DNA of 64,000 bases from Candidatus Thorarchaeota archaeon (GTDB lineage Archaea; Asgardarchaeota; Thorarchaeia; Thorarchaeales; Thorarchaeaceae): NCBI GenBank assembly GCA_019057475.1, contig DXJO01000027.1:36174-100173 (forward strand), in the 5' to 3' direction. Below are positions 18,636 to 36,229 of this stretch, one piece after another. The number at the start of each line of letters is the position of its first letter. The first letter of the stretch is position 1. The notes below the pieces were generated by a model. It did not search any database. It saw nothing but the letters and a program-made list of their open reading frames with translations, and was not told where the DNA came from. Position numbers and translations under genes: made by a program.

Positions 18636-20492
18636 TTAGTCCCAGTGAAGAGGACTTGCACAATGGGGACAGACTGTGGTTTCGCCGGGCAGACCTCGCT
18701 TTGCCAGTGCCCCACGGCAGTGAGAGCATTCAATCCTTCTGGGCTGCACCGGCTCGGCCACGGCCTTGCTCCTCAACAGTAGGTCTCTCAGGTTCTCACG
18801 CATATCATCCAGTAGACTTGAGAACTTGGCTTCATCTTCTGAGGCAACAGAGATTCTAGTCTGTTGGTTGTCTTTTGATACTGACCCGATGATGATTACC
18901 TCTGCTCCCTCGACAGTGGCCTTGCCGTAGTATAGGGCTTCTTTCAGCACCTCAAGAAAACCGCGCTCGCCCACAAACCAGACGTCGTGTTGCTCAATTA
19001 CCTTCTTGACTATGCCAAAGACCTTTTCGGCATCAGCTTCTGCGTCCAAGGTTACACTGAACTCGCGCTTCGCCTGAAGCTTTTCATCTATGAGACGATC
19101 AAGATGGGCCATGTCAGCAGTCGCCAAGTACGCATCACGAACTGCAGCCTCATTGGCTGTTGGAATCCGCATCTCAGTGTCGCCATGTTCACTGCACGTC
19201 AATACTGCCAAAGACTCACCTTCTCGTTCGTGGGGTTTAATCTCAACGAGGCTGAGCTTATCGTGGCACTTTGGACACTCGTAAAGGCGCCCGTATAGTT
19301 TCACCAATAATTCATGGTTCATGCATTGCACATAGACGCGAGCACTTTCATGCCCGTTCTGGCACTTCACTTGGAGTTCGAATAGTCCATTCTCAATCTT
19401 GATGTTGCGGATTGTGAAAGGAGCACTGCATTTGCCGCATCGGAAGCTCTCCTCTAGAAACTTTTTTCTATCGATGGCTGGCTCTCGTTCCTCGATTTGC
19501 TTGTAAACGCCAACCTTGAGCCACTTTCGCATTGTTCCATGGATGGGACAGACAAGCTCTAGCGTGACATTTTCTCCCTTGACGCTTTTCTCCAGAATGT
19601 GTGCCAGAAGGTCGCATTTGTCGCATTTGAGCACTGCATTGACTATTGCATCTATGGACTGGGTTGTTCGCTCGATTGGTTGCACGATTTCACAAGAGTG
19701 ACCCTTTGAGCATCTGCACTTCATCTTGTACCCCTTCTTGTCTGTGTCAATGTTGCGTATAGACAGGGGGCGTCCGCAATCTCTGCATGTGAGAGCATCC
19801 TTCACGATGGCATCCTTCTCAGCCTCACCAGAAACCTCTCTTAGAAACTCAGCATTCTCAGCAGGTATCTTCTTCTTGCCCTTTCCGTGAACGGGACAGG
19901 ACATTTCCACATGTGTGTACTTGCCTTTGACTTCCGCTTTTTCCAATGAACAGCGGAGGCCGCATTCATCGCACAGAAGCACTCTCTGCATGACACCTTT
20001 GAGGATGCTTACATCGGAGTTACGAGGAAGGTATCTCATCTCCTTGTGCCCATTGGGACATTTCGACTTGATTTCGAGAACACCCTTCTTGTCTTCAATT
20101 TCATGAACCATGAACTCCTCACTACATCGGGGACAAGTGAAGGCGGCTTCGACAGACTTCCCGGTCTTCTCAATGTCAATGAGGGCTGACACCGCTGAAT
20201 GATGCCCGATTGGGATGGGCCGTTCCTGAGGTCCGTGTTCTGGACATACAAAGATGAACTTGACCTGGCGCTTTCCCAAGTCAGTACTGAGAAGTCCCAT
20301 TGTACTGCCGCAGTCCAGACAGATGCATAGGCCCTGGTACAAATCCTCCAGCATGCCTTTGGCTTGTTGAAGAGGGATTTTCCTATCTTCTCTGTGACCA
20401 TTGAGACATTGCACGCGCATCCGTAGATTCGATCCACGGATATCGGCGTATTTGACATGAAAGGGTTCATTGCATTTCTTGCACGTGAACAT
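18636..20492 (-). CDS. Protein with eight tandem C3H zinc modules, a platform-like domain and a C4 zinc ribbon
   Basis: Alternating CxxC-x21-CxxGH and CxxC-x21-CxxHG units (four pairs; last unit x23); terminal CSHC..CPHC. Confidence 0.8.
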   Translation of the reverse strand: MFTCKKCNEPFHVKYADIRGSNLRMRVQCLNGHREDRKIPLQQAKGMLEDLYQGLCICLDCGSTMGLLSTDLGKRQVKFIFVCPEHGPQERPIPIGHHSAVSALIDIEKTGKSVEAAFTCPRCSEEFMVHEIEDKKGVLEIKSKCPNGHKEMRYLPRNSDVSILKGVMQRVLLCDECGLRCSLEKAEVKGKYTHVEMSCPVHGKGKKKIPAENAEFLREVSGEAEKDAIVKDALTCRDCGRPLSIRNIDTDKKGYKMKCRCSKGHSCEIVQPIERTTQSIDAIVNAVLKCDKCDLLAHILEKSVKGENVTLELVCPIHGTMRKWLKVGVYKQIEEREPAIDRKKFLEESFRCGKCSAPFTIRNIKIENGLFELQVKCQNGHESARVYVQCMNHELLVKLYGRLYECPKCHDKLSLVEIKPHEREGESLAVLTCSEHGDTEMRIPTANEAAVRDAYLATADMAHLDRLIDEKLQAKREFSVTLDAEADAEKVFGIVKKVIEQHDVWFVGERGFLEVLKEALYYGKATVEGAEVIIIGSVSKDNQQTRISVASEDEAKFSSLLDDMRENLRDLLLRSKAVAEPVQPRRIECSHCRGALAKRGLPGETTVCPHCASPLHWD

Positions 20493-20586
20493 AGGATTCC
20501 CTCCGCTACAAACGTGCCGCGGCCAACTGGGGACTAGCGCTCAGGTCCCTAAAATGCGTTTCCCCAAGAGGAAAACGAACAACCAA

Positions 20587-22863
20587 CTACTGAAGATACA
20601 GCGCTATAGTCAATGAATGGGAGCAGTACCTGCATCTAATCGGTTTGCGTGTGCCAAGTTCCTCTACCTGCTCTGTTTCCAGTGGAGCGCCACATCGCAA
20701 GCAAATCCAGGAGTCCATCGTATCGGCAAGCTCATCGATTGTTGTTGGCAGCATGGCGATATCCTCACCTAACGCTTCGACCTTCACAACCGAATGCCGA
20801 CCATTCTCAGGACCAGTAATGAGGAAGATAACTGCGACCTTCTTGCCTGTGTACTTCCCCTTCGCAAACCCGCGAATAGTACCTATGAACTGGCCTCCAA
20901 CAATTGTTTCTTCACTGTCGATGATATGAAAGTTCTTGGCCGGGAGTATCTTCTCTGCTTTGGTGAACAGGACTCGGGGGTTCCAATCGAGAGTTTGTTC
21001 CTGCTGGGTGATTGTCAAGCTCTTCAGGATAAGGTCGAATTCCTCTGATGTTTTCTTTGATGGCTTCAACAGGTCACATACAGATCGAATAAGGTACGGT
21101 TCGACCTGTACGGTATGAAGCTGGTCGCGGAAATCGATGAATGACACCGTAGATACAACTTTGCCTTGAACACAGTCCTTGGTGGGGTAGAACGTGAATT
21201 GAGGGCTCCTGAAGCCACCCACTTCAATACGCGATATCGTTTTCACTGCCTCTCCAGCAAGTTCCATGCTGTCCTTTGGATAAGCGACTATGTTCACCGT
21301 TACATTCGTAATGACATAGCCACTATTGTTCTTCACCTTAACCTTGTAATCGAATTTACCACCCACGATATTGCACCCACGCAGCACTTGCACATCTGCT
21401 TGCTGAGCCTCAACCATCTCAACTAGAGGTTCAAGAATATGCGGCTCTTCATACTCCTCAGCCTCAACAGGCGGCTTGAGCTTGTCCGCCTGTATCTCAT
21501 CGTAGGCGATTTTCATGGCTTCTGCATGATCATGGGGTATCTCTAGGACGTACTTGCCATGCACAGGACATAGCTGCACTACTCGCGACTCTCGCCCTCG
21601 TGGTTCAGCGTACACCAGATCCAGAGAATCATAACACTCAGGACACTGGTAGAAATGTTTGTAGAGGTTCACCAGTGTTTCCTGCGGCAGACCTGGAACA
21701 AAGAATCGCTTTGCTCTATGTCCATTCCTACATTCAACATCGAACTCGATTAAACCCCTCTTGTCTTCAACGTCCCTGAGAAAGAGCGGCATGTTGCATT
21801 TCTCACAGCTAAGACTTCGGACAATTGAGGGCAGCCTATCAATCATTGGCTCGCGTTCCTTGATGTGATCAAACACATCTGAAGGAACATCTCTTTGCAT
21901 CACACCATGAATTGGACAGACTACCCTGAACTCTACTTTCTTCTTACGTCGTTTCACATCATGCCCGTGAGTAAGAAGGCCACACTCGTTGCATGACATC
22001 AGGGCTGCAGCAACCCGATCCTTCACGGGATCACTCCAAGTCAGCGGGATGTTTCTAGTTGTTGTATGACCATCACTTGGACAAATGCATCTGAACTTGT
22101 ATCCAGACTCGTCACCTTCAATGGCTCGTATCGAGAGAGGGAATTGGCAATTACTGGAAACAAGCATCGCTCTAACAACGGCGTCCTCAGGTATCTCGCT
22201 CGCAGCTTGTTTCATGAGCTTAACTAGGTCGGCAGGAATTTCCTTCCTATCAGACCCGTGGAGCGGGCATGATATGTGAATTTTGACAGTTTCTCGATTC
22301 ATCTCAATTCTAGTAATGGTGCTTGGGAGACCACACCTATCGCAATGAACAACTCGTTGTAGCAGTTGTTTGAGTAATCCTTCTTCAGCATTATCAGGAA
22401 CGTATCTTGTTGTCTTGTGTCCATTTGAACACCGCACGAGCATCTCAAGGAAACCCCTTCGGTTCTTAATGCCACTCACTGCATAGACCTGACCACACGA
22501 GAGACACTTGAAGGAGTCCAGAATGGAGCCAGGACTATCCACATCCGCACCTAGAATCTCGACTGTTGACTGAAACTGAGCTGGAAACTCGCGTTCCACT
22601 GGGCCATGAATGGGACAGAGAAAAGTGCTCTCAATCTGAGAATGATGAGGGATGGTGGATAGCTGTGTCATTGAAGACCCGCAGTCGGTGCACAAGAACA
22701 ATTTCTTGAAAAGGTCTGGAGCCATTTCTTGAGCTTGGTGCTCGGCCAATCGTCTGACACTTTTATGACCATTCACACACTGAACATCCATCTTCAGGAT
22801 TTTGTCCTTAATCTCGGCAGCTTGAATGTACAGCTGTTGGCTACATTTTCTGCAAGTGAACAT
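20587..22863 (-). CDS. Paralogue with eight C3H zinc modules, an appendage-like (sandwich plus platform) region and a C4 zinc ribbon
   Basis: Same repeat array, starting MFTC(R/K)KC in both genes; acidic Pro linker; terminal CLRC..CRYC. Confidence 0.8.
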   Translation of the reverse strand: MFTCRKCSQQLYIQAAEIKDKILKMDVQCVNGHKSVRRLAEHQAQEMAPDLFKKLFLCTDCGSSMTQLSTIPHHSQIESTFLCPIHGPVEREFPAQFQSTVEILGADVDSPGSILDSFKCLSCGQVYAVSGIKNRRGFLEMLVRCSNGHKTTRYVPDNAEEGLLKQLLQRVVHCDRCGLPSTITRIEMNRETVKIHISCPLHGSDRKEIPADLVKLMKQAASEIPEDAVVRAMLVSSNCQFPLSIRAIEGDESGYKFRCICPSDGHTTTRNIPLTWSDPVKDRVAAALMSCNECGLLTHGHDVKRRKKKVEFRVVCPIHGVMQRDVPSDVFDHIKEREPMIDRLPSIVRSLSCEKCNMPLFLRDVEDKRGLIEFDVECRNGHRAKRFFVPGLPQETLVNLYKHFYQCPECYDSLDLVYAEPRGRESRVVQLCPVHGKYVLEIPHDHAEAMKIAYDEIQADKLKPPVEAEEYEEPHILEPLVEMVEAQQADVQVLRGCNIVGGKFDYKVKVKNNSGYVITNVTVNIVAYPKDSMELAGEAVKTISRIEVGGFRSPQFTFYPTKDCVQGKVVSTVSFIDFRDQLHTVQVEPYLIRSVCDLLKPSKKTSEEFDLILKSLTITQQEQTLDWNPRVLFTKAEKILPAKNFHIIDSEETIVGGQFIGTIRGFAKGKYTGKKVAVIFLITGPENGRHSVVKVEALGEDIAMLPTTIDELADTMDSWICLRCGAPLETEQVEELGTRKPIRCRYCSHSLTIALYLQ

Positions 22864-22958: not shown

Positions 22959-24248
22959 CTATGTAACGCTTCCCGGGACATCAACACTCTCAAGGAGCTT
23001 ATCTCCAGCCTTCTTGACCTTGGAACGGTACCCCCGCGTTGTGTAGACTCTCACAGGTCGGAGGTCACGATTAAAACTGCGAGCAATTAGACTGACCTCA
23101 TCAACTGGCCAGAACTCATAGCCCTTGGACCCACGTTCAAAGAACACCAACTCATCAAGGGGGTATTTCCCCGGGTAGTAAGTCACTGAGGGCCTGTCAG
23201 GATAGTCAACATAGACATTTTTTGGATCGATATCCGCCGCCTCAGCAATCTCACTCTCTGCTTGAAAGAGGCCATCGGGAGTGGATATCTTCTTCATGAA
23301 AGCGACATCGGATATCGCTCTTTCGCTAGCCAACTTGATGAGATACCGCTTTCGGAAGTCCTTGTAGAGCCTGCTTGCAGTCTGCATCTCATCTGTGTCG
23401 TCTTCAGTCACTGAGAGTAGTACATCAAGGAATGAGAGGTCATCATAGAGCAGGAATTGTTCAATGTCATCGTCAGGAGAAAGGAAGAGCTGGGACCCAG
23501 CCTCGTCGAGTATACGCAGAAGCATCAATTCTGCGGCGCGCACTGTTCGATGGTAATAGACGGCATCGTACATATTGACGCCTGCCGAGAGGTACGCCTC
23601 GAAGGTATGCATGGAACTCCTGTTCAATGCAATCTTGTTCTTTGCTATCCGTGTTGCGGCGAATAATCTCCGGTACTCTAGCTGAGCGTACTCAACGCCG
23701 GCGAAGTATGCGTCACGCTCAAGATTGTCGATTAATACGGGATTGATGGGACACTTCATGAGATCAAGCCGGAAGCTCTTCAGCGGAACTCCACGCTCTA
23801 GCATGTTCTTTATCTCACTGACGGAAGTCACACTGCCCTTGATGATATCCTTGACCGGTGATTTCGTAGCAATCAAACTGGCAAGCTTCTGTTTATTGGT
23901 TCCCCGAACTGTCAAGTACTCTGTCATGACATTATTCCAAGGTCCTGTTGACAGAGTGAGAAGCATTGCGATCAGTCTTGCTCTCTGGACTTCATCCAAG
24001 TCGCCGTCCAAGGAGTCAAAGAAAACTTTGGTGACATGCATAACTCCGAGCAGACGACCCATCACTGACGTGTCTGCACCCGGGAAGACCAAGTGAATGC
24101 CTGCGGGCCCGCGGATATTGCGCAACCTCTGACTGAGCCGGAGGTCCAGTATGGATTTCTCAACACTCGAGAGCTCTATGTACCCATGAAGCGGATCTTT
24201 GATTTCGAGCACTGATGGATAATCACTAATCGGCATGAAAGTCCCCAT
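22959..24248 (-). CDS. SAMHD1/YwfO-like HD-superfamily protein with degenerate metal-binding motifs
   Basis: IKDPLHGYI..QRLR.I..VFPGA, L.RD.YFAGV.Y and MY..VYYHRTVRAAE scaffold intact; HD residues absent. Confidence 0.8.
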   Translation of the reverse strand: MGTFMPISDYPSVLEIKDPLHGYIELSSVEKSILDLRLSQRLRNIRGPAGIHLVFPGADTSVMGRLLGVMHVTKVFFDSLDGDLDEVQRARLIAMLLTLSTGPWNNVMTEYLTVRGTNKQKLASLIATKSPVKDIIKGSVTSVSEIKNMLERGVPLKSFRLDLMKCPINPVLIDNLERDAYFAGVEYAQLEYRRLFAATRIAKNKIALNRSSMHTFEAYLSAGVNMYDAVYYHRTVRAAELMLLRILDEAGSQLFLSPDDDIEQFLLYDDLSFLDVLLSVTEDDTDEMQTASRLYKDFRKRYLIKLASERAISDVAFMKKISTPDGLFQAESEIAEAADIDPKNVYVDYPDRPSVTYYPGKYPLDELVFFERGSKGYEFWPVDEVSLIARSFNRDLRPVRVYTTRGYRSKVKKAGDKLLESVDVPGSVT

Positions 24249-33300: not shown

Positions 33301-36229
33301 ACCAGTTCTGGGGGCAACCGTTACACTTACACTCAATGACACAAGGATCTTCGACTTCACACTGGGAGCAGACGACCAGTGGCATCTTTTGCTTGATGCC
33401 AGTGTGATTGATCTCGGCAACTGGGATGCCAATGTCACAGCCAATAAAACAGGTTACGACACTGGCACAATGAGCAGGATGATGCTGGTGCGAGTCGACC
33501 CGTGTACGGCTACACCAAACTGGTTGATCACAGAGATATACTACACTCATCAGACAGACCTAAACGTCACACTGCTCGACTCACTGGGCCATCCAATGGA
33601 AAGCACAATTGTAAACGCCACCTATAGTGGAGTCAACTACACCCTCATCCATGTAGTCAACGGAGTTTACAGGCTGCGTCTTAATGGTAGTGATGGGATG
33701 GGCACATACCCAATTCGGATATTCACATTCAGCTATGGATTCATGAACAGAACAGTGGATATCCAACTTGATATAGTAGAAACTCCGACCTCGCTCTATA
33801 CAAGTGGAACGAGAGTCTTTGAATACAGTGGAGCACAGGGCACGATCTTATACAATGACGGATGGCTCGTTTTCAATGTCCGTTATGAGGACATTGACTC
33901 AATTGTGCTGACTGGAGCTACACTGAATGTCACGATTGATGGCCAAGTGTACACACTCTCAATTCAACCGAGTAGCAACTACACGTTGACATTGTACGCC
34001 ATTCAGCTTGGAATCGGAATGCATAGTGGAAGTTTCCTCGCTGACATTTATGGTTACGAAACTAGGAATGAGCCATTCTCAATAGATGTGGAACCTGTGC
34101 CAGCACATATCGAAGTGAGCTTGGGTGTAGTCCCATCTGTCATGTTCCTCAATGACTCAGCTGTTATCAGATTCGATTACATAGACGACCACACTGGAAC
34201 GAGGATTGCTGACGCATCCACAATCATTTTCATTTGGCCAAACGACTTAGCCGTCCAGGATATTGATATCGGCAGATTCGAAGTCACTATCAGTTCCTTC
34301 TCTCTCGCTCTTACCGACCATGTACTAAATGTTACTCTTGGCCATGTCAACTTCACAACATCACAGTTCGTTCGAGTAATCAACATAAGACCGGTGAACA
34401 CACGCTTCACCGCATCTTCATCATTTGGGCAGTATGAAAACGAAACAGTAGTTTTGGCAGTCAACTATACTGACGTCGACCATGGACAGTTCATTCACTG
34501 GGCGAGCGTAAATGCAACCATTGAAGGGACCGTATTCCAGATGGAATACGTAGGAGAGGGAATCTATAGCTTCAATTTGCATATCACATGGCCCCCCGGC
34601 ACATACCAAATATCGTTTGCCGCATCTGCTGTAGGTTGTGCATCCAACCATACAACTGCACAACTTGCCGTCAGTGAGAAAACCGTTGTATACCTAACAC
34701 TCAGCGTCCTCGGTGCAAGCGAAGGGCAGTCCGCCCAGATTGAGGCTACTCTCAGGGAGAACGTTACTGAAGACCCTGTTCGAGGTGTCACCATATACTT
34801 TGAGGTTTCTATTGTCTTCGGCAACGGAACTGTATTGGTATACGAAGAGATCTATGCGTTCCCGACCAATGATGATGGAATAGCAAGCTTCGCCTATTTG
34901 ATTCCAACGGGCGAAACCAGTCCTGTGGACCATCTTGAAATTGTAGCCAGATTTGATGGCACAACCTCAATCTGGAGCACGGAAGCGTTGCGCTCTGTCC
35001 CTGTATCGCCAAGCATTCTTGGTGCGATAATGGCGTTCATTCTAACACCTCCGGGTATGTACATAGTCATTGGCTTCATCCTTCTAGCAACTGTGGCTGC
35101 ATTCTATAACAAGCGGATTAAGCCCAAGAAGAGGGCAGCCATGGATTCACTAGAGAGGCAGCTTCAGGACTTTGCAGACCTCGAAACACTTCGCCATTTC
35201 ATGGCAGTCTATCTTGACCGGGGAACATGTGTATTCTACCATCCATTTGTTGATGAACGCATACAGCCCGATTTGATCAGCGGATTCATCGCCGCTATCA
35301 CAAGTGTCTACGGGGAGATCAAGGGTGATGGAGTCAGAGGCACGCTTGAAGAGATTCAGTATCATGGCCTCCGACTCAATAGCTACAGCGGGAAGTACGT
35401 GATAGGCATCCTAATCCTAGAAGGCGAGATGACAAAGCTCCTCAGAGAGAGACTTCAGTTTTTCATCGAAGTGTTCGAAAAACACCATGAAACCTATCTT
35501 GAGGACTGGGATGGACTCATTGACTGCTTCGACCCCGAATGGGTGGTTTCAAACCTGACTGGATCGTTCAATTACACCTGTCTCTTGCCACACAGATTCG
35601 GAAAGAAGCGCAAAGTCAGCAAGCTGGATGGCAAGATACTGGACCTGATTGGAACACGAAGAGACAATAGAAGAGAGTTCTATCTCCGTGCCCTCATAAA
35701 GCCAGTAGCAGCGTTGATGGGAGCCTCAGAGGCGAAGGCACTGGACAAAATACTAGCCATGGAGGACAAGGGGCTCATAGAACCGATTGGCATTCAGACC
35801 GTTCTGCAACGACAGGGGCTTGGTCTTGCCAATGGAGAGGACGAAACTGTAACAGCGCCCGCATTAAAATCCAAGCCAAAATCACCACCGAAGGTCAAAC
35901 CGCCCAAGCTCAAGCCTGCCAAGAAGAAGATTGATGCACAAGATATAGACGATATCCTTCCGGAGCATGAACCATCTAAGCCACGAGAGGGAACAGAGAA
36001 GCATGAGCCTCGGAAACAACCCCCCGTTGTAGTGGTGGCACCAAAGGATGTAGATAAACCATCACCCATTATGACGCCGACACCAATAACAAAAGTCAAA
36101 GAGACCAAGGCCAAACCTGCTGAAAAGAAGAAGGCGCCCAAGGAGGAGATGAGCGAAGCGGACAAGTTCATTGCTGAGGTTATCGATCTCCTCGCAAAGG
36201 AGAAGAAGAAAAAAGGCAAGTCGGATTGA
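30377..36229 (+). CDS. Giant single-pass surface protein with Ig-like repeats and a cytoplasmic longin-like domain
   Basis: N-terminal hydrophobic signal; ~100-aa beta-rich repeats with many NxS/T sequons; TM helix near residue 1570; IQPDLISGFIAAI motif; Lys/Pro-rich tail. Confidence 0.85.
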   Translation: MRMRRGNVVKRVLVSSVIIVLVLIIPLTGREADTSSWHRQSPDEPGRTSLELADVGGTGEDADSTLFMSRTFSDMQLSILNTYAATAKHNETLDLTEYLLPGWTLYNATMMLNNLTAAPEREVVGVNPQATENFKIEENLAGDVYTEELAQSFYGQPHNGSLLNYSIRYRAINYDPDYYGYAFHTIRSDYSSSSTNLTSHVNVTASIPYVWLTLSGSNANLSQDTVYWAMIDGTNLVEYLNVYPEVFWSSEDSAGDFDTAIFLVGWLTGRENEALLNYTYTPWDPGTNSALVFANPQDIALRANSTSATDPSVWSFSSSNKNITLVNFDSNQSVYIYHNLTLWYKRSATAQTDWNISTPGGNVLWNQTLTTAYPSITGIDARYVNFTRMTDWNPTGLYNGTTSTNHDNYTALGTVVRCANMTNGTWTLQFFAPNYVKSVDTYDSSDALEIQEAVNIQVDLDINSTISDGAILANTGFTNLTVYHEGASVHTPSNESVVAGKTHYLWDIEFHNDNGTFTIEVYWTNGTEAGYLAKEIVVFYPTTLVAAEYSIDAYTDDSFGISVYYNDTFTPQPLTGAFAVVEYSFDGGINTSMNDQGNGWWNATIFTIAKAPGTYNVTIYAEGCAIENQTAVIWATLIHETLPLTCVWSEPYQDNITYVEQTNLTVQYQLVNAANVTDANVNVTIVGMGTWQLHYDLASEIYWIQFNGSDFTTGLDTFTLNVSAWKTGHEAQFSDALSLTVRSAPTTMTLDWSSTTIDYLGQIDLTVNYTCDADGLAVPTGTVIANITIDGNSPLYLNLSGNFWTANLTGVFLDLGTHSVVVQAWAYGYEYQINSSYSLTVNNVTTDGLSVVWNPANVTIEYIDRLNLTVVYTYGGSAVPSTAIVNVTINGHSYDLNWSAGAWEGSIPGGDIGPGIWEATISAWLYGYEPRLNITSNINITLAANSYIVYWEPLDLNVTYVEQVNLTVIYTHDYQPVLGATVTLTLNDTRIFDFTLGADDQWHLLLDASVIDLGNWDANVTANKTGYDTGTMSRMMLVRVDPCTATPNWLITEIYYTHQTDLNVTLLDSLGHPMESTIVNATYSGVNYTLIHVVNGVYRLRLNGSDGMGTYPIRIFTFSYGFMNRTVDIQLDIVETPTSLYTSGTRVFEYSGAQGTILYNDGWLVFNVRYEDIDSIVLTGATLNVTIDGQVYTLSIQPSSNYTLTLYAIQLGIGMHSGSFLADIYGYETRNEPFSIDVEPVPAHIEVSLGVVPSVMFLNDSAVIRFDYIDDHTGTRIADASTIIFIWPNDLAVQDIDIGRFEVTISSFSLALTDHVLNVTLGHVNFTTSQFVRVINIRPVNTRFTASSSFGQYENETVVLAVNYTDVDHGQFIHWASVNATIEGTVFQMEYVGEGIYSFNLHITWPPGTYQISFAASAVGCASNHTTAQLAVSEKTVVYLTLSVLGASEGQSAQIEATLRENVTEDPVRGVTIYFEVSIVFGNGTVLVYEEIYAFPTNDDGIASFAYLIPTGETSPVDHLEIVARFDGTTSIWSTEALRSVPVSPSILGAIMAFILTPPGMYIVIGFILLATVAAFYNKRIKPKKRAAMDSLERQLQDFADLETLRHFMAVYLDRGTCVFYHPFVDERIQPDLISGFIAAITSVYGEIKGDGVRGTLEEIQYHGLRLNSYSGKYVIGILILEGEMTKLLRERLQFFIEVFEKHHETYLEDWDGLIDCFDPEWVVSNLTGSFNYTCLLPHRFGKKRKVSKLDGKILDLIGTRRDNRREFYLRALIKPVAALMGASEAKALDKILAMEDKGLIEPIGIQTVLQRQGLGLANGEDETVTAPALKSKPKSPPKVKPPKLKPAKKKIDAQDIDDILPEHEPSKPREGTEKHEPRKQPPVVVVAPKDVDKPSPIMTPTPITKVKETKAKPAEKKKAPKEEMSEADKFIAEVIDLLAKEKKKKGKSD

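Follow-up and report, generated by a model that had tools for sequence, protein, structure and literature searches.

We analysed a window of 64,000 nt (the whole stretch of contig DXJO01000027.1 considered here, positions 36,174 to 100,173 of the forward strand) from a Thorarchaeota (Asgard) genome, assembly GCA_019057475.1, of 3.34 Mb and 96% completeness. Within it, two adjacent genes, which we call A and B, encode related proteins with a repeated array of predicted zinc ribbons at the N-terminus and, by predicted fold, all or half of an adaptin-type ear near the C-terminus. The two open reading frames run in the same direction with 94 bp between them:

18636-20492, minus strand: gene A, 618 aa, starting MFTCKKC; zinc-ribbon array, platform-only ear and C4 ribbon
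20587-22863, minus strand: gene B, 758 aa, starting MFTCRKC; zinc-ribbon array, hinge, full ear and C4 ribbon

Neither protein has a predicted transmembrane segment, so both should be soluble. In Pfam and NCBIfam scans, neither A nor B matched a catalytic family, which agrees with an earlier reading of this DNA from sequence alone (the sequence-only reading) that had seen no catalytic motif; the matches that these scans did return (Evr1_Alr, DUF723, DmmA and Sel_Asgard) are sub-threshold noise. For conservation, we aligned 33 A-type and 104 B-type proteins, and for distribution we surveyed 400 Asgard genomes, in which f1 denotes the family containing the window genome and f2 its sister family in the same order, Thorarchaeales.

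A pattern scan and an alignment of units divide the N-terminal parts of A and B into four dyads each, each a type a module followed by a type b module:

19113-20492, minus strand: array of A, residues 1-460; four a/b dyads, eight Cys3-His (CCCH) sites
20145-20492, 19797-20144, 19449-19796 and 19113-19448, minus strand: the four dyads of A, from pattern scan and unit alignment
21481-22863, minus strand: array of B, residues 1-461; four a/b dyads, seven intact CCCH sites
22516-22863, 22168-22515, 21817-22167 and 21481-21816, minus strand: the four dyads of B, from pattern scan and unit alignment

The eight modules of each protein start at residues 1, 55, 117, 171, 233, 287/288, 349/350 and 403/404. 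Type a modules have 54 aa and the pattern CxxC-x21-C-x-N/K-G-H; they alternate strictly with type b modules of 62 aa and the pattern CxxC-x21-C-P/S-x-H-G, and only the last module of A deviates, with x23 spacing and CSEHG. The resulting units are 116, 116, 116/117 and 112 aa long. Hence, the MFTC(R/K)KC starts and the four units of about 116 aa with alternating modules, as the sequence-only reading had described them, are confirmed.

The repeat is far beyond chance: a hidden Markov model (HMM) made from orthologous copies of a single unit position recovers the remaining positions with E values of 1e-10 to 1e-25. With these unit HMMs, scores are 150-184 bits for the equivalent position of the other paralogue vs 27-76 bits for other positions. 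Hence, the position-by-position correspondence of the A and B modules, claimed earlier from inspection, is real, and the four-unit array predates the divergence of A from B. Furthermore, types a and b are homologous to each other (hhalign 96.7%, E 3e-10); together with the unit scores, this gives the order of events as a single module, then an a/b dyad, then four dyads and finally duplication of the gene.

In both alignments, the ligand Cys and His residues show no or almost no variation, with one site as the exception. Module 5 of B (residues 233-287) is without its first Cys, residue 236 being Ser, which confirms the Cys loss that the sequence-only reading placed in unit 3 of the longer protein. 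Residue 236 is never Cys in the 104 B-types (it is S, A, T or D instead); hence, the loss characterises the whole family and did not arise in this genome alone. The module retains C239, C259 and C261, of which the extra Cys259 (forming C-x-C) is conserved in 91 of 104 proteins, and its His is retained in only 44 of 104. On this conservation pattern, the site (window 22036-22167, residues 233-276) has either been remodelled or lost its metal.

With 33 homologues as input, AlphaFold2 gave a model of A with a predicted local distance difference test score (pLDDT) of 86.1 and a predicted template modelling score (pTM) of 0.63. In it, every module consists of a knuckle, two strands, the second knuckle and a third strand, after which come one helix in a modules and two in b modules. 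Two knuckles, four ligands and a three-stranded sheet, the features that define a zinc ribbon, are present as a prediction throughout, B module 5 excepted. Hence, according to the model, each module combines a zinc ribbon, with Cys3-His as its ligands, and a helical spacer. The helix that the sequence-only reading placed at the end of each module is borne out by the A model, but its description as amphipathic is weakly supported: the hydrophobic moment (muH) is 0.42-0.50 after a modules and mixed after b modules, not clearly above shuffled sequences. The a modules are basic (net charge +4), and the array as a whole is near neutral, with a median isoelectric point (pI) of 7.3-7.7 (25 A-type and 42 B-type proteins).

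The modules resemble the zinc ribbons of TFIIB, TFIIS, RpoP, bL33, LysW and eIF2-beta in having two knuckles that flank a three-stranded antiparallel sheet, and CPxHG, the second knuckle in type b modules, corresponds to the common CPxCG knuckle with its last Cys exchanged for His. Unlike classical zinc ribbons, they use Cys3-His ligands in two fixed, alternating variants (C-x3-H and C-x2-H), and helices follow each ribbon, the whole being repeated as four a/b dyads. They also differ from C2H2 fingers (C-x2-4-C-x12-H-x3-5-H, beta-beta-alpha) in spacing, C-x2-C-x21-C-x2/3-H, and in having three strands before the helix. Neither single sequences searched against Pfam, NCBIfam and the PDB nor a dyad profile searched against the PDB (best E 0.13) gave a significant match to the dyad. 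Hence, the repeat family was rightly called unrecognised, and we found neither of the two things that would have spoken against that description, a characterised Pfam family for the repeat or widespread homologues of known function. Foldseek with the whole A model returned beta-propeller matches only (root-mean-square deviation (rmsd) ~25, TM ~0.1), which were rejected as artefacts of repetition in the 3Di alphabet. An ESM Atlas search with B residues 1-232 gave a best score of 0.84 to generic zinc ribbons, below the useful range.

C-terminal to the array, the two proteins differ in how much of the ear they carry:

21394-21480, minus strand: hinge of B, residues 462-490; acidic (pI 4.05) and variable, with residues 475-488 at pLDDT <50
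21064-21393, minus strand: ear beta-sandwich of B, residues ~491-600; from the AlphaFold2 model and VIA matches
20713-21063, minus strand: ear platform of B, residues ~601-717; from VIA and Foldseek matches
20590-20712, minus strand: C4 zinc ribbon of B (C721, C724, C744, C747), invariant in the 104 B-types
18759-19112, minus strand: platform of A, residues 461-578, without beta-sandwich
18639-18740, minus strand: C4 zinc ribbon of A (C589, C592, C608, C611), then a conserved LPGET motif

The sequence-only reading was right that a C4 ribbon ends both proteins; it overlooked the adaptin-type appendage in the C-terminal 160-300 residues. We modelled B residues 462-758 with 29 homologues (AlphaFold2, pLDDT 85.7) and obtained, in order, a disordered acidic hinge, a beta-sandwich, an alpha/beta platform and the C4 ribbon. 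With this model, the top 14 Foldseek matches are the ears of AP2 alpha, AP2 beta2 and COPI beta/gamma, and BBSome GAE-platform chains rank below them. The matches that span both subdomains cover 234-253 columns with E down to 3e-10, and the TMt to beta-COP (9qpq_H) is 0.75. VIA, a structure search independent of Foldseek, found the same group:

AP2 alpha ear, 1w80_A: Z 15.3, 211 residues aligned
beta2 ear, 3h1z_A: Z 13.9, 208 residues aligned
gamma-COP, 1r4x_A: Z 13.4, 213 residues aligned
AP-4 beta platform, 2mj7: Z 12.9, rmsd 2.4, 113 residues aligned
BBS9, 6vbu_9: Z 11.9, 190 residues aligned

The B sandwich by itself matched the GGA2 GAE domain (Z 10.4) and the gamma2-adaptin ear (Z 9.8). 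Hence, both ear subdomains, the Ig-like sandwich and the TBP-like platform, are present in the predicted structure of B. In A there is the platform only; its C-terminal domain aligns with the platform half of the B cassette profile (by cassette we mean ear plus C4 ribbon) at an hhalign probability of 94%, and VIA matched it to beta2-adaptin (Z 11.9, rmsd 2.8), AP-4 beta (11.4) and alpha-adaptin (11.1).

Within B, conservation peaks in the cassette: the majority fraction over the 104 B-types is 0.84-0.90 there, compared with 0.70 in the array and 0.52, the lowest value, in the hinge. Two ear-sandwich cysteines, Cys564 (window 21171-21173) and Cys596 (21075-21077), are invariant in the B family and, within the motifs SVCDLL and PTKDCV, nearly invariant across the Asgard cassette family; they may be a structural pair or a further metal site. 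The Cys residues of the terminal C4 ribbon are likewise nearly invariant (>=90% of rows) in the Asgard cassette alignment.

B thus shares its sandwich-then-platform fold with the AP2 alpha and beta2, AP-4 beta and COPI beta/gamma ears (1w80, 3h1z, 1e42, 2mj7, 1r4x, 9qpq_H) and with BBS9 (6vbu_9), and, as in eukaryotic ears, the B ear lies at the protein end, behind a flexible hinge, as the best-conserved portion. Unlike eukaryotic ears, those of A and B have no detectable sequence similarity to them and are followed by a C4 zinc ribbon after the platform, and A has the platform only. The trunk in front of the ear also differs, being a mostly-beta zinc-ribbon array and not the alpha-solenoid (HEAT) of adaptor large subunits, and, unlike AP and COPI complexes, no AP- or COPI-type partner subunits are encoded near A and B.

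In the tree of array proteins, A and B are reciprocally monophyletic (supports 94/93 and 97/96), and the f2 proteins, which have B-type architecture, fall outside both. Orthologs across Thorarchaeota share 41-46% identity for A and 60-69% for B. These sequence comparisons indicate that one duplication near the base of the family gave A and B, and that A then lost its sandwich and evolves faster. We regard the anatomy and evolutionary history given here as secure, with very high confidence.

The four-dyad array occurs only in f1 and f2, that is, in Thorarchaeales. Among the 85 genomes of f1, the unit profile matches 68 and full-length B matches 78. Of 1.84 billion representative proteins searched with a profile, only 187 matched at E<=1e-3 and 9 at E<=1e-30. 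Dyad proteins without the array are small and have one dyad, with up to three units in one Ranarchaeia protein; the single-dyad proteins with a named source belong to Ranarchaeia and Helarchaeota, and the genome scan placed single dyads in f14 (19 of 19 genomes), f16-f19 and part of f22. Hence, the search with module profiles across taxa that the sequence-only reading had suggested separates an array confined to Thorarchaeales from single dyads in other Asgard lineages. After the dyad, the single-dyad proteins typically continue with a proline-rich linker and a double zinc ribbon, or with a PCI-like winged helix. One Helarchaeota protein, P0194, consists of a dyad, a PCI-like winged-helix segment, an ear and a ribbon; hence, a second lineage also joins dyad to ear.

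Single dyads were also seen to head small Asgard proteins at loci L091:426-1163:+, L093:1142-1702:-, L096:1279-1878:- and L098:1192-1845:-, and single-dyad proteins reach 6-7 paralogues per genome. Matches from the profile search that consist only of 5-10 stretches of ~20-30 profile positions look like cysteine-pattern noise; the one such match inspected, P0171, is a repeat protein with short-period CPIHG/CPKC motifs.

The ear and ribbon have a much wider distribution than the array. Full-length B finds matches in 237 of the 400 Asgard genomes, and outside f1 and f2 the matches listed cover only B residues ~440-755, the ear and ribbon, at 33-42% identity; on other f1 proteins the cassette reaches 59% identity to B. 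Cassette proteins without the array range from 314 to 2,463 aa, and the N-terminal parts of those sampled include NosD beta-helices, SBBP/LVIVD propellers with TSP3 repeats, FG-GAP/BBS-like propellers, HEAT repeats and a bacterial PH domain (bPH). In several, a signal or anchor is combined with one transmembrane helix that precedes the cassette by 25-45 aa; some are multi-pass proteins with 6-7 transmembrane helices, and two consist of an anchor and the cassette only. From this arrangement in the sequences, the membrane proteins look like receptors with a cytoplasmic ear tail. Cassette genes are often arranged as tandem pairs (L069, L084, L086 and L090).

The membrane cassette proteins, all from other Asgard genomes, lie at L070:7455-10205:+, L082:2962-6375:+, L071:856-8244:+, L072:2341-9495:+, L073:2496-4418:+, L074:2351-4204:+, L075:2497-4800:+, L086:2492-3571:- and L086:3599-4705:-, and in these loci (L070-L075, L082 and L086) the cassette is ~40-59% identical to that of B. 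Soluble proteins of f22, ~606-616 aa long, also end in the cassette (L076:2436-4253:-, L077:2750-4597:-, L078:2227-4044:- and L079:2409-4235:+). That of L076 has an N-terminal beta-propeller with weak Pfam matches to BBS2_Mid, the BBS7 propeller and PHTB1_N, and those of L077, L078 and L079 share its N-terminal sequence; judging by these matches, their layout recalls the propeller-GAE-platform of a BBSome subunit. The genome of the window encodes a third, distant ear-like protein of 485 aa (contig C24, L089:3244-4698:+), which is 23% identical to the B cassette (E 7e-22), has a weak N-terminal match to HEAT repeats and is without the terminal ribbon.

Asgard ears have been published before: multidomain proteins of these archaea were described with appendage regions, some of them also with zinc ribbons (Makarova et al. 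2024, mBio, 10.1101/2024.02.06.579148; Eme et al. 2023, PMC10307638). The same two studies interpret archaeal and Asgard appendage domains as interaction hubs and report a Methanosalsum appendage joined to a GOLD domain via a transmembrane linker. The published appendage proteins are defined by Vps28-C, steadiness-box, longin or an ESCRT (endosomal sorting complex required for transport) neighbourhood, and none of these was found for A and B by Pfam or in the conserved 20-kb neighbourhood. An eight-module CCCH array was not found in the text and the searched supplements of both papers, the literature and supplements searched hold no description of the Cys3-His a/b dyad, the array or the array-ear fusion, and a literature search for a Thorarchaeota zinc-ribbon repeat returned no paper. 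Hence, the zinc array and its fusion to an ear are apparently undescribed, and the a/b dyad, as a compact zinc domain, merits definition as a family.

Taking the fold analogy as a guide, we favour, with moderate confidence, a role of the two paralogues as docking scaffolds, soluble and non-enzymatic, that only Thorarchaeales have. The cassette would serve as a common docking hub on the cytoplasmic side, with the ear binding short peptide motifs of partner proteins as the AP2 and COPI ears do. The N-terminal parts fused to it would be interchangeable input modules, of which the zinc array is the one specific to Thorarchaeales. The array itself may act as a zinc-stabilised spacer or as a multivalent binding surface, and thereby determine how specific the hub is or how far it reaches, the eight zinc sites presumably holding together small modules unable to fold alone. 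The zinc-stabilised scaffold proposed by the sequence-only reading fits everything found here: the near-invariant ligands and the confident A model both point to it.

Several results weigh against the docking-scaffold reading. The function proposed rests on fold analogy, and a shared fold is no proof of a shared function. The ear Pfam families (Alpha_adaptinC2, B2-adapt-app_C, COP-gamma_platf and Coatamer_beta_C) gave no match to A or B at E<=0.1, and the cassette profile found no ear chain in the PDB at E<=10; hence, the ear is claimed at the level of fold only. For A as a whole, the Foldseek matches are spurious and the VIA list is dominated by the C-terminal platform. Finally, the neighbourhood is conserved yet uninformative (ABC transporters, DUF2070, UbiX, an HD-associated protein and an M28 peptidase), and the neighbourhoods of other ear genes are uninformative as well.

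That A and B work as an obligate heterodimer, two rods paired lengthwise like two large adaptor subunits, is unlikely. The tandem arrangement with 94 bp between the genes is conserved in many genomes, the modules of the two proteins correspond position by position, and the tandem pairing of cassette genes elsewhere points the same way. However, when every candidate was scored, one genome each of the genera g8-g11 and g15 (88-97% complete) had B only and four genomes of genus g13 had A only, and in genome G320 the A and B genes are 1.7 Mb apart. Hence, an obligate heterodimer is not supported, and the suggestion of the sequence-only reading that the proteins are probably heterodimeric fails as a general rule; a facultative A-B complex is possible in genomes with both genes. 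We judge it quite unlikely that the proteins supply the Asgard ESCRT pathway by reading ubiquitin-like modifiers in a multivalent manner, the zinc modules binding the modifier and the ear docking ESCRT components. Asgard ESCRT-linked proteins with zinc-ribbon triplets and adaptin appendages were proposed as ESCRT-0 analogues (Makarova et al. 2024, 10.1101/2024.02.06.579148), and some homologues of A and B have faint zf_UBZ matches. Yet Pfam finds no Vps28-C, steadiness box, longin or ESCRT family in A or B (short helical motifs could escape hmmscan), and the conserved 20-kb neighbourhood contains no ESCRT gene. Furthermore, the phyletic profile of ESCRT-II does not correlate with that of the ear: its component EAP30 is present in the ear-less families f8 (31/31), f10 (12/12), f11 (22/22) and f13 (12/12) and no match to it turned up in the three genomes of f17 (82-88% complete) in which ear and dyad occur together.

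By analogy with TFIIB, TFIIS, RpoP and Elf1, whose zinc ribbons touch polymerase or nucleic acids, A and B could be regulators whose eight ribbons read DNA or RNA. The basic a modules, the PCI-like winged helix of some single-dyad relatives, weak sub-threshold Pfam matches to zinc ribbons and the automatic names of homologues (RpoP/RPC12, Elf1 and topoisomerase-type Zn ribbon) all lean this way. However, those names are generic COG-type matches under any curated threshold, the array as a whole is near neutral and it is fused to a protein-interaction ear. Pfam finds no helix-turn-helix (HTH) or other DNA-binding family in A or B, and what accompanies the dyad in most single-dyad relatives is a proline-rich linker and a double zinc ribbon instead of a DNA-binding domain. 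Nucleic-acid binding as the function is, in our view, distinctly unlikely.

Returning to the docking scaffolds, the ear here belongs to a defined and strongly conserved architecture that follows the trunk-hinge-ear plan of large adaptor subunits, although its trunk, made of zinc ribbons, is quite different, and the array proteins exist alongside membrane proteins that have the same ear as a tail. A broader reading, which we consider doubtful as a whole, is that the cassette marks an ESCRT-independent, Asgard-wide sorting or docking system in which receptors and soluble adaptors share a cytoplasmic hub and the Thorarchaeales proteins are analogues of adaptor large subunits, a zinc-ribbon rod replacing the alpha-solenoid trunk. 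If true, this would be a prokaryotic forerunner or parallel of the coat-adaptor design. Once identified, the partners of the ear would give the docking targets of archaeal ears and tell whether a sorting-type system exists in Thorarchaeota.

Around the two genes, the order HD_assoc_2 - B - A - UbiX - DUF2070 is conserved across f1, and the entire 20 kb is likewise syntenic; f2 keeps UbiX, not the HD gene. Hence, we do not call these genes an operon or a system. The gene directly upstream of B (window 22959-24248, minus strand) has no HD domain match and is recognised only by its HD_assoc_2 region (E 1e-18).

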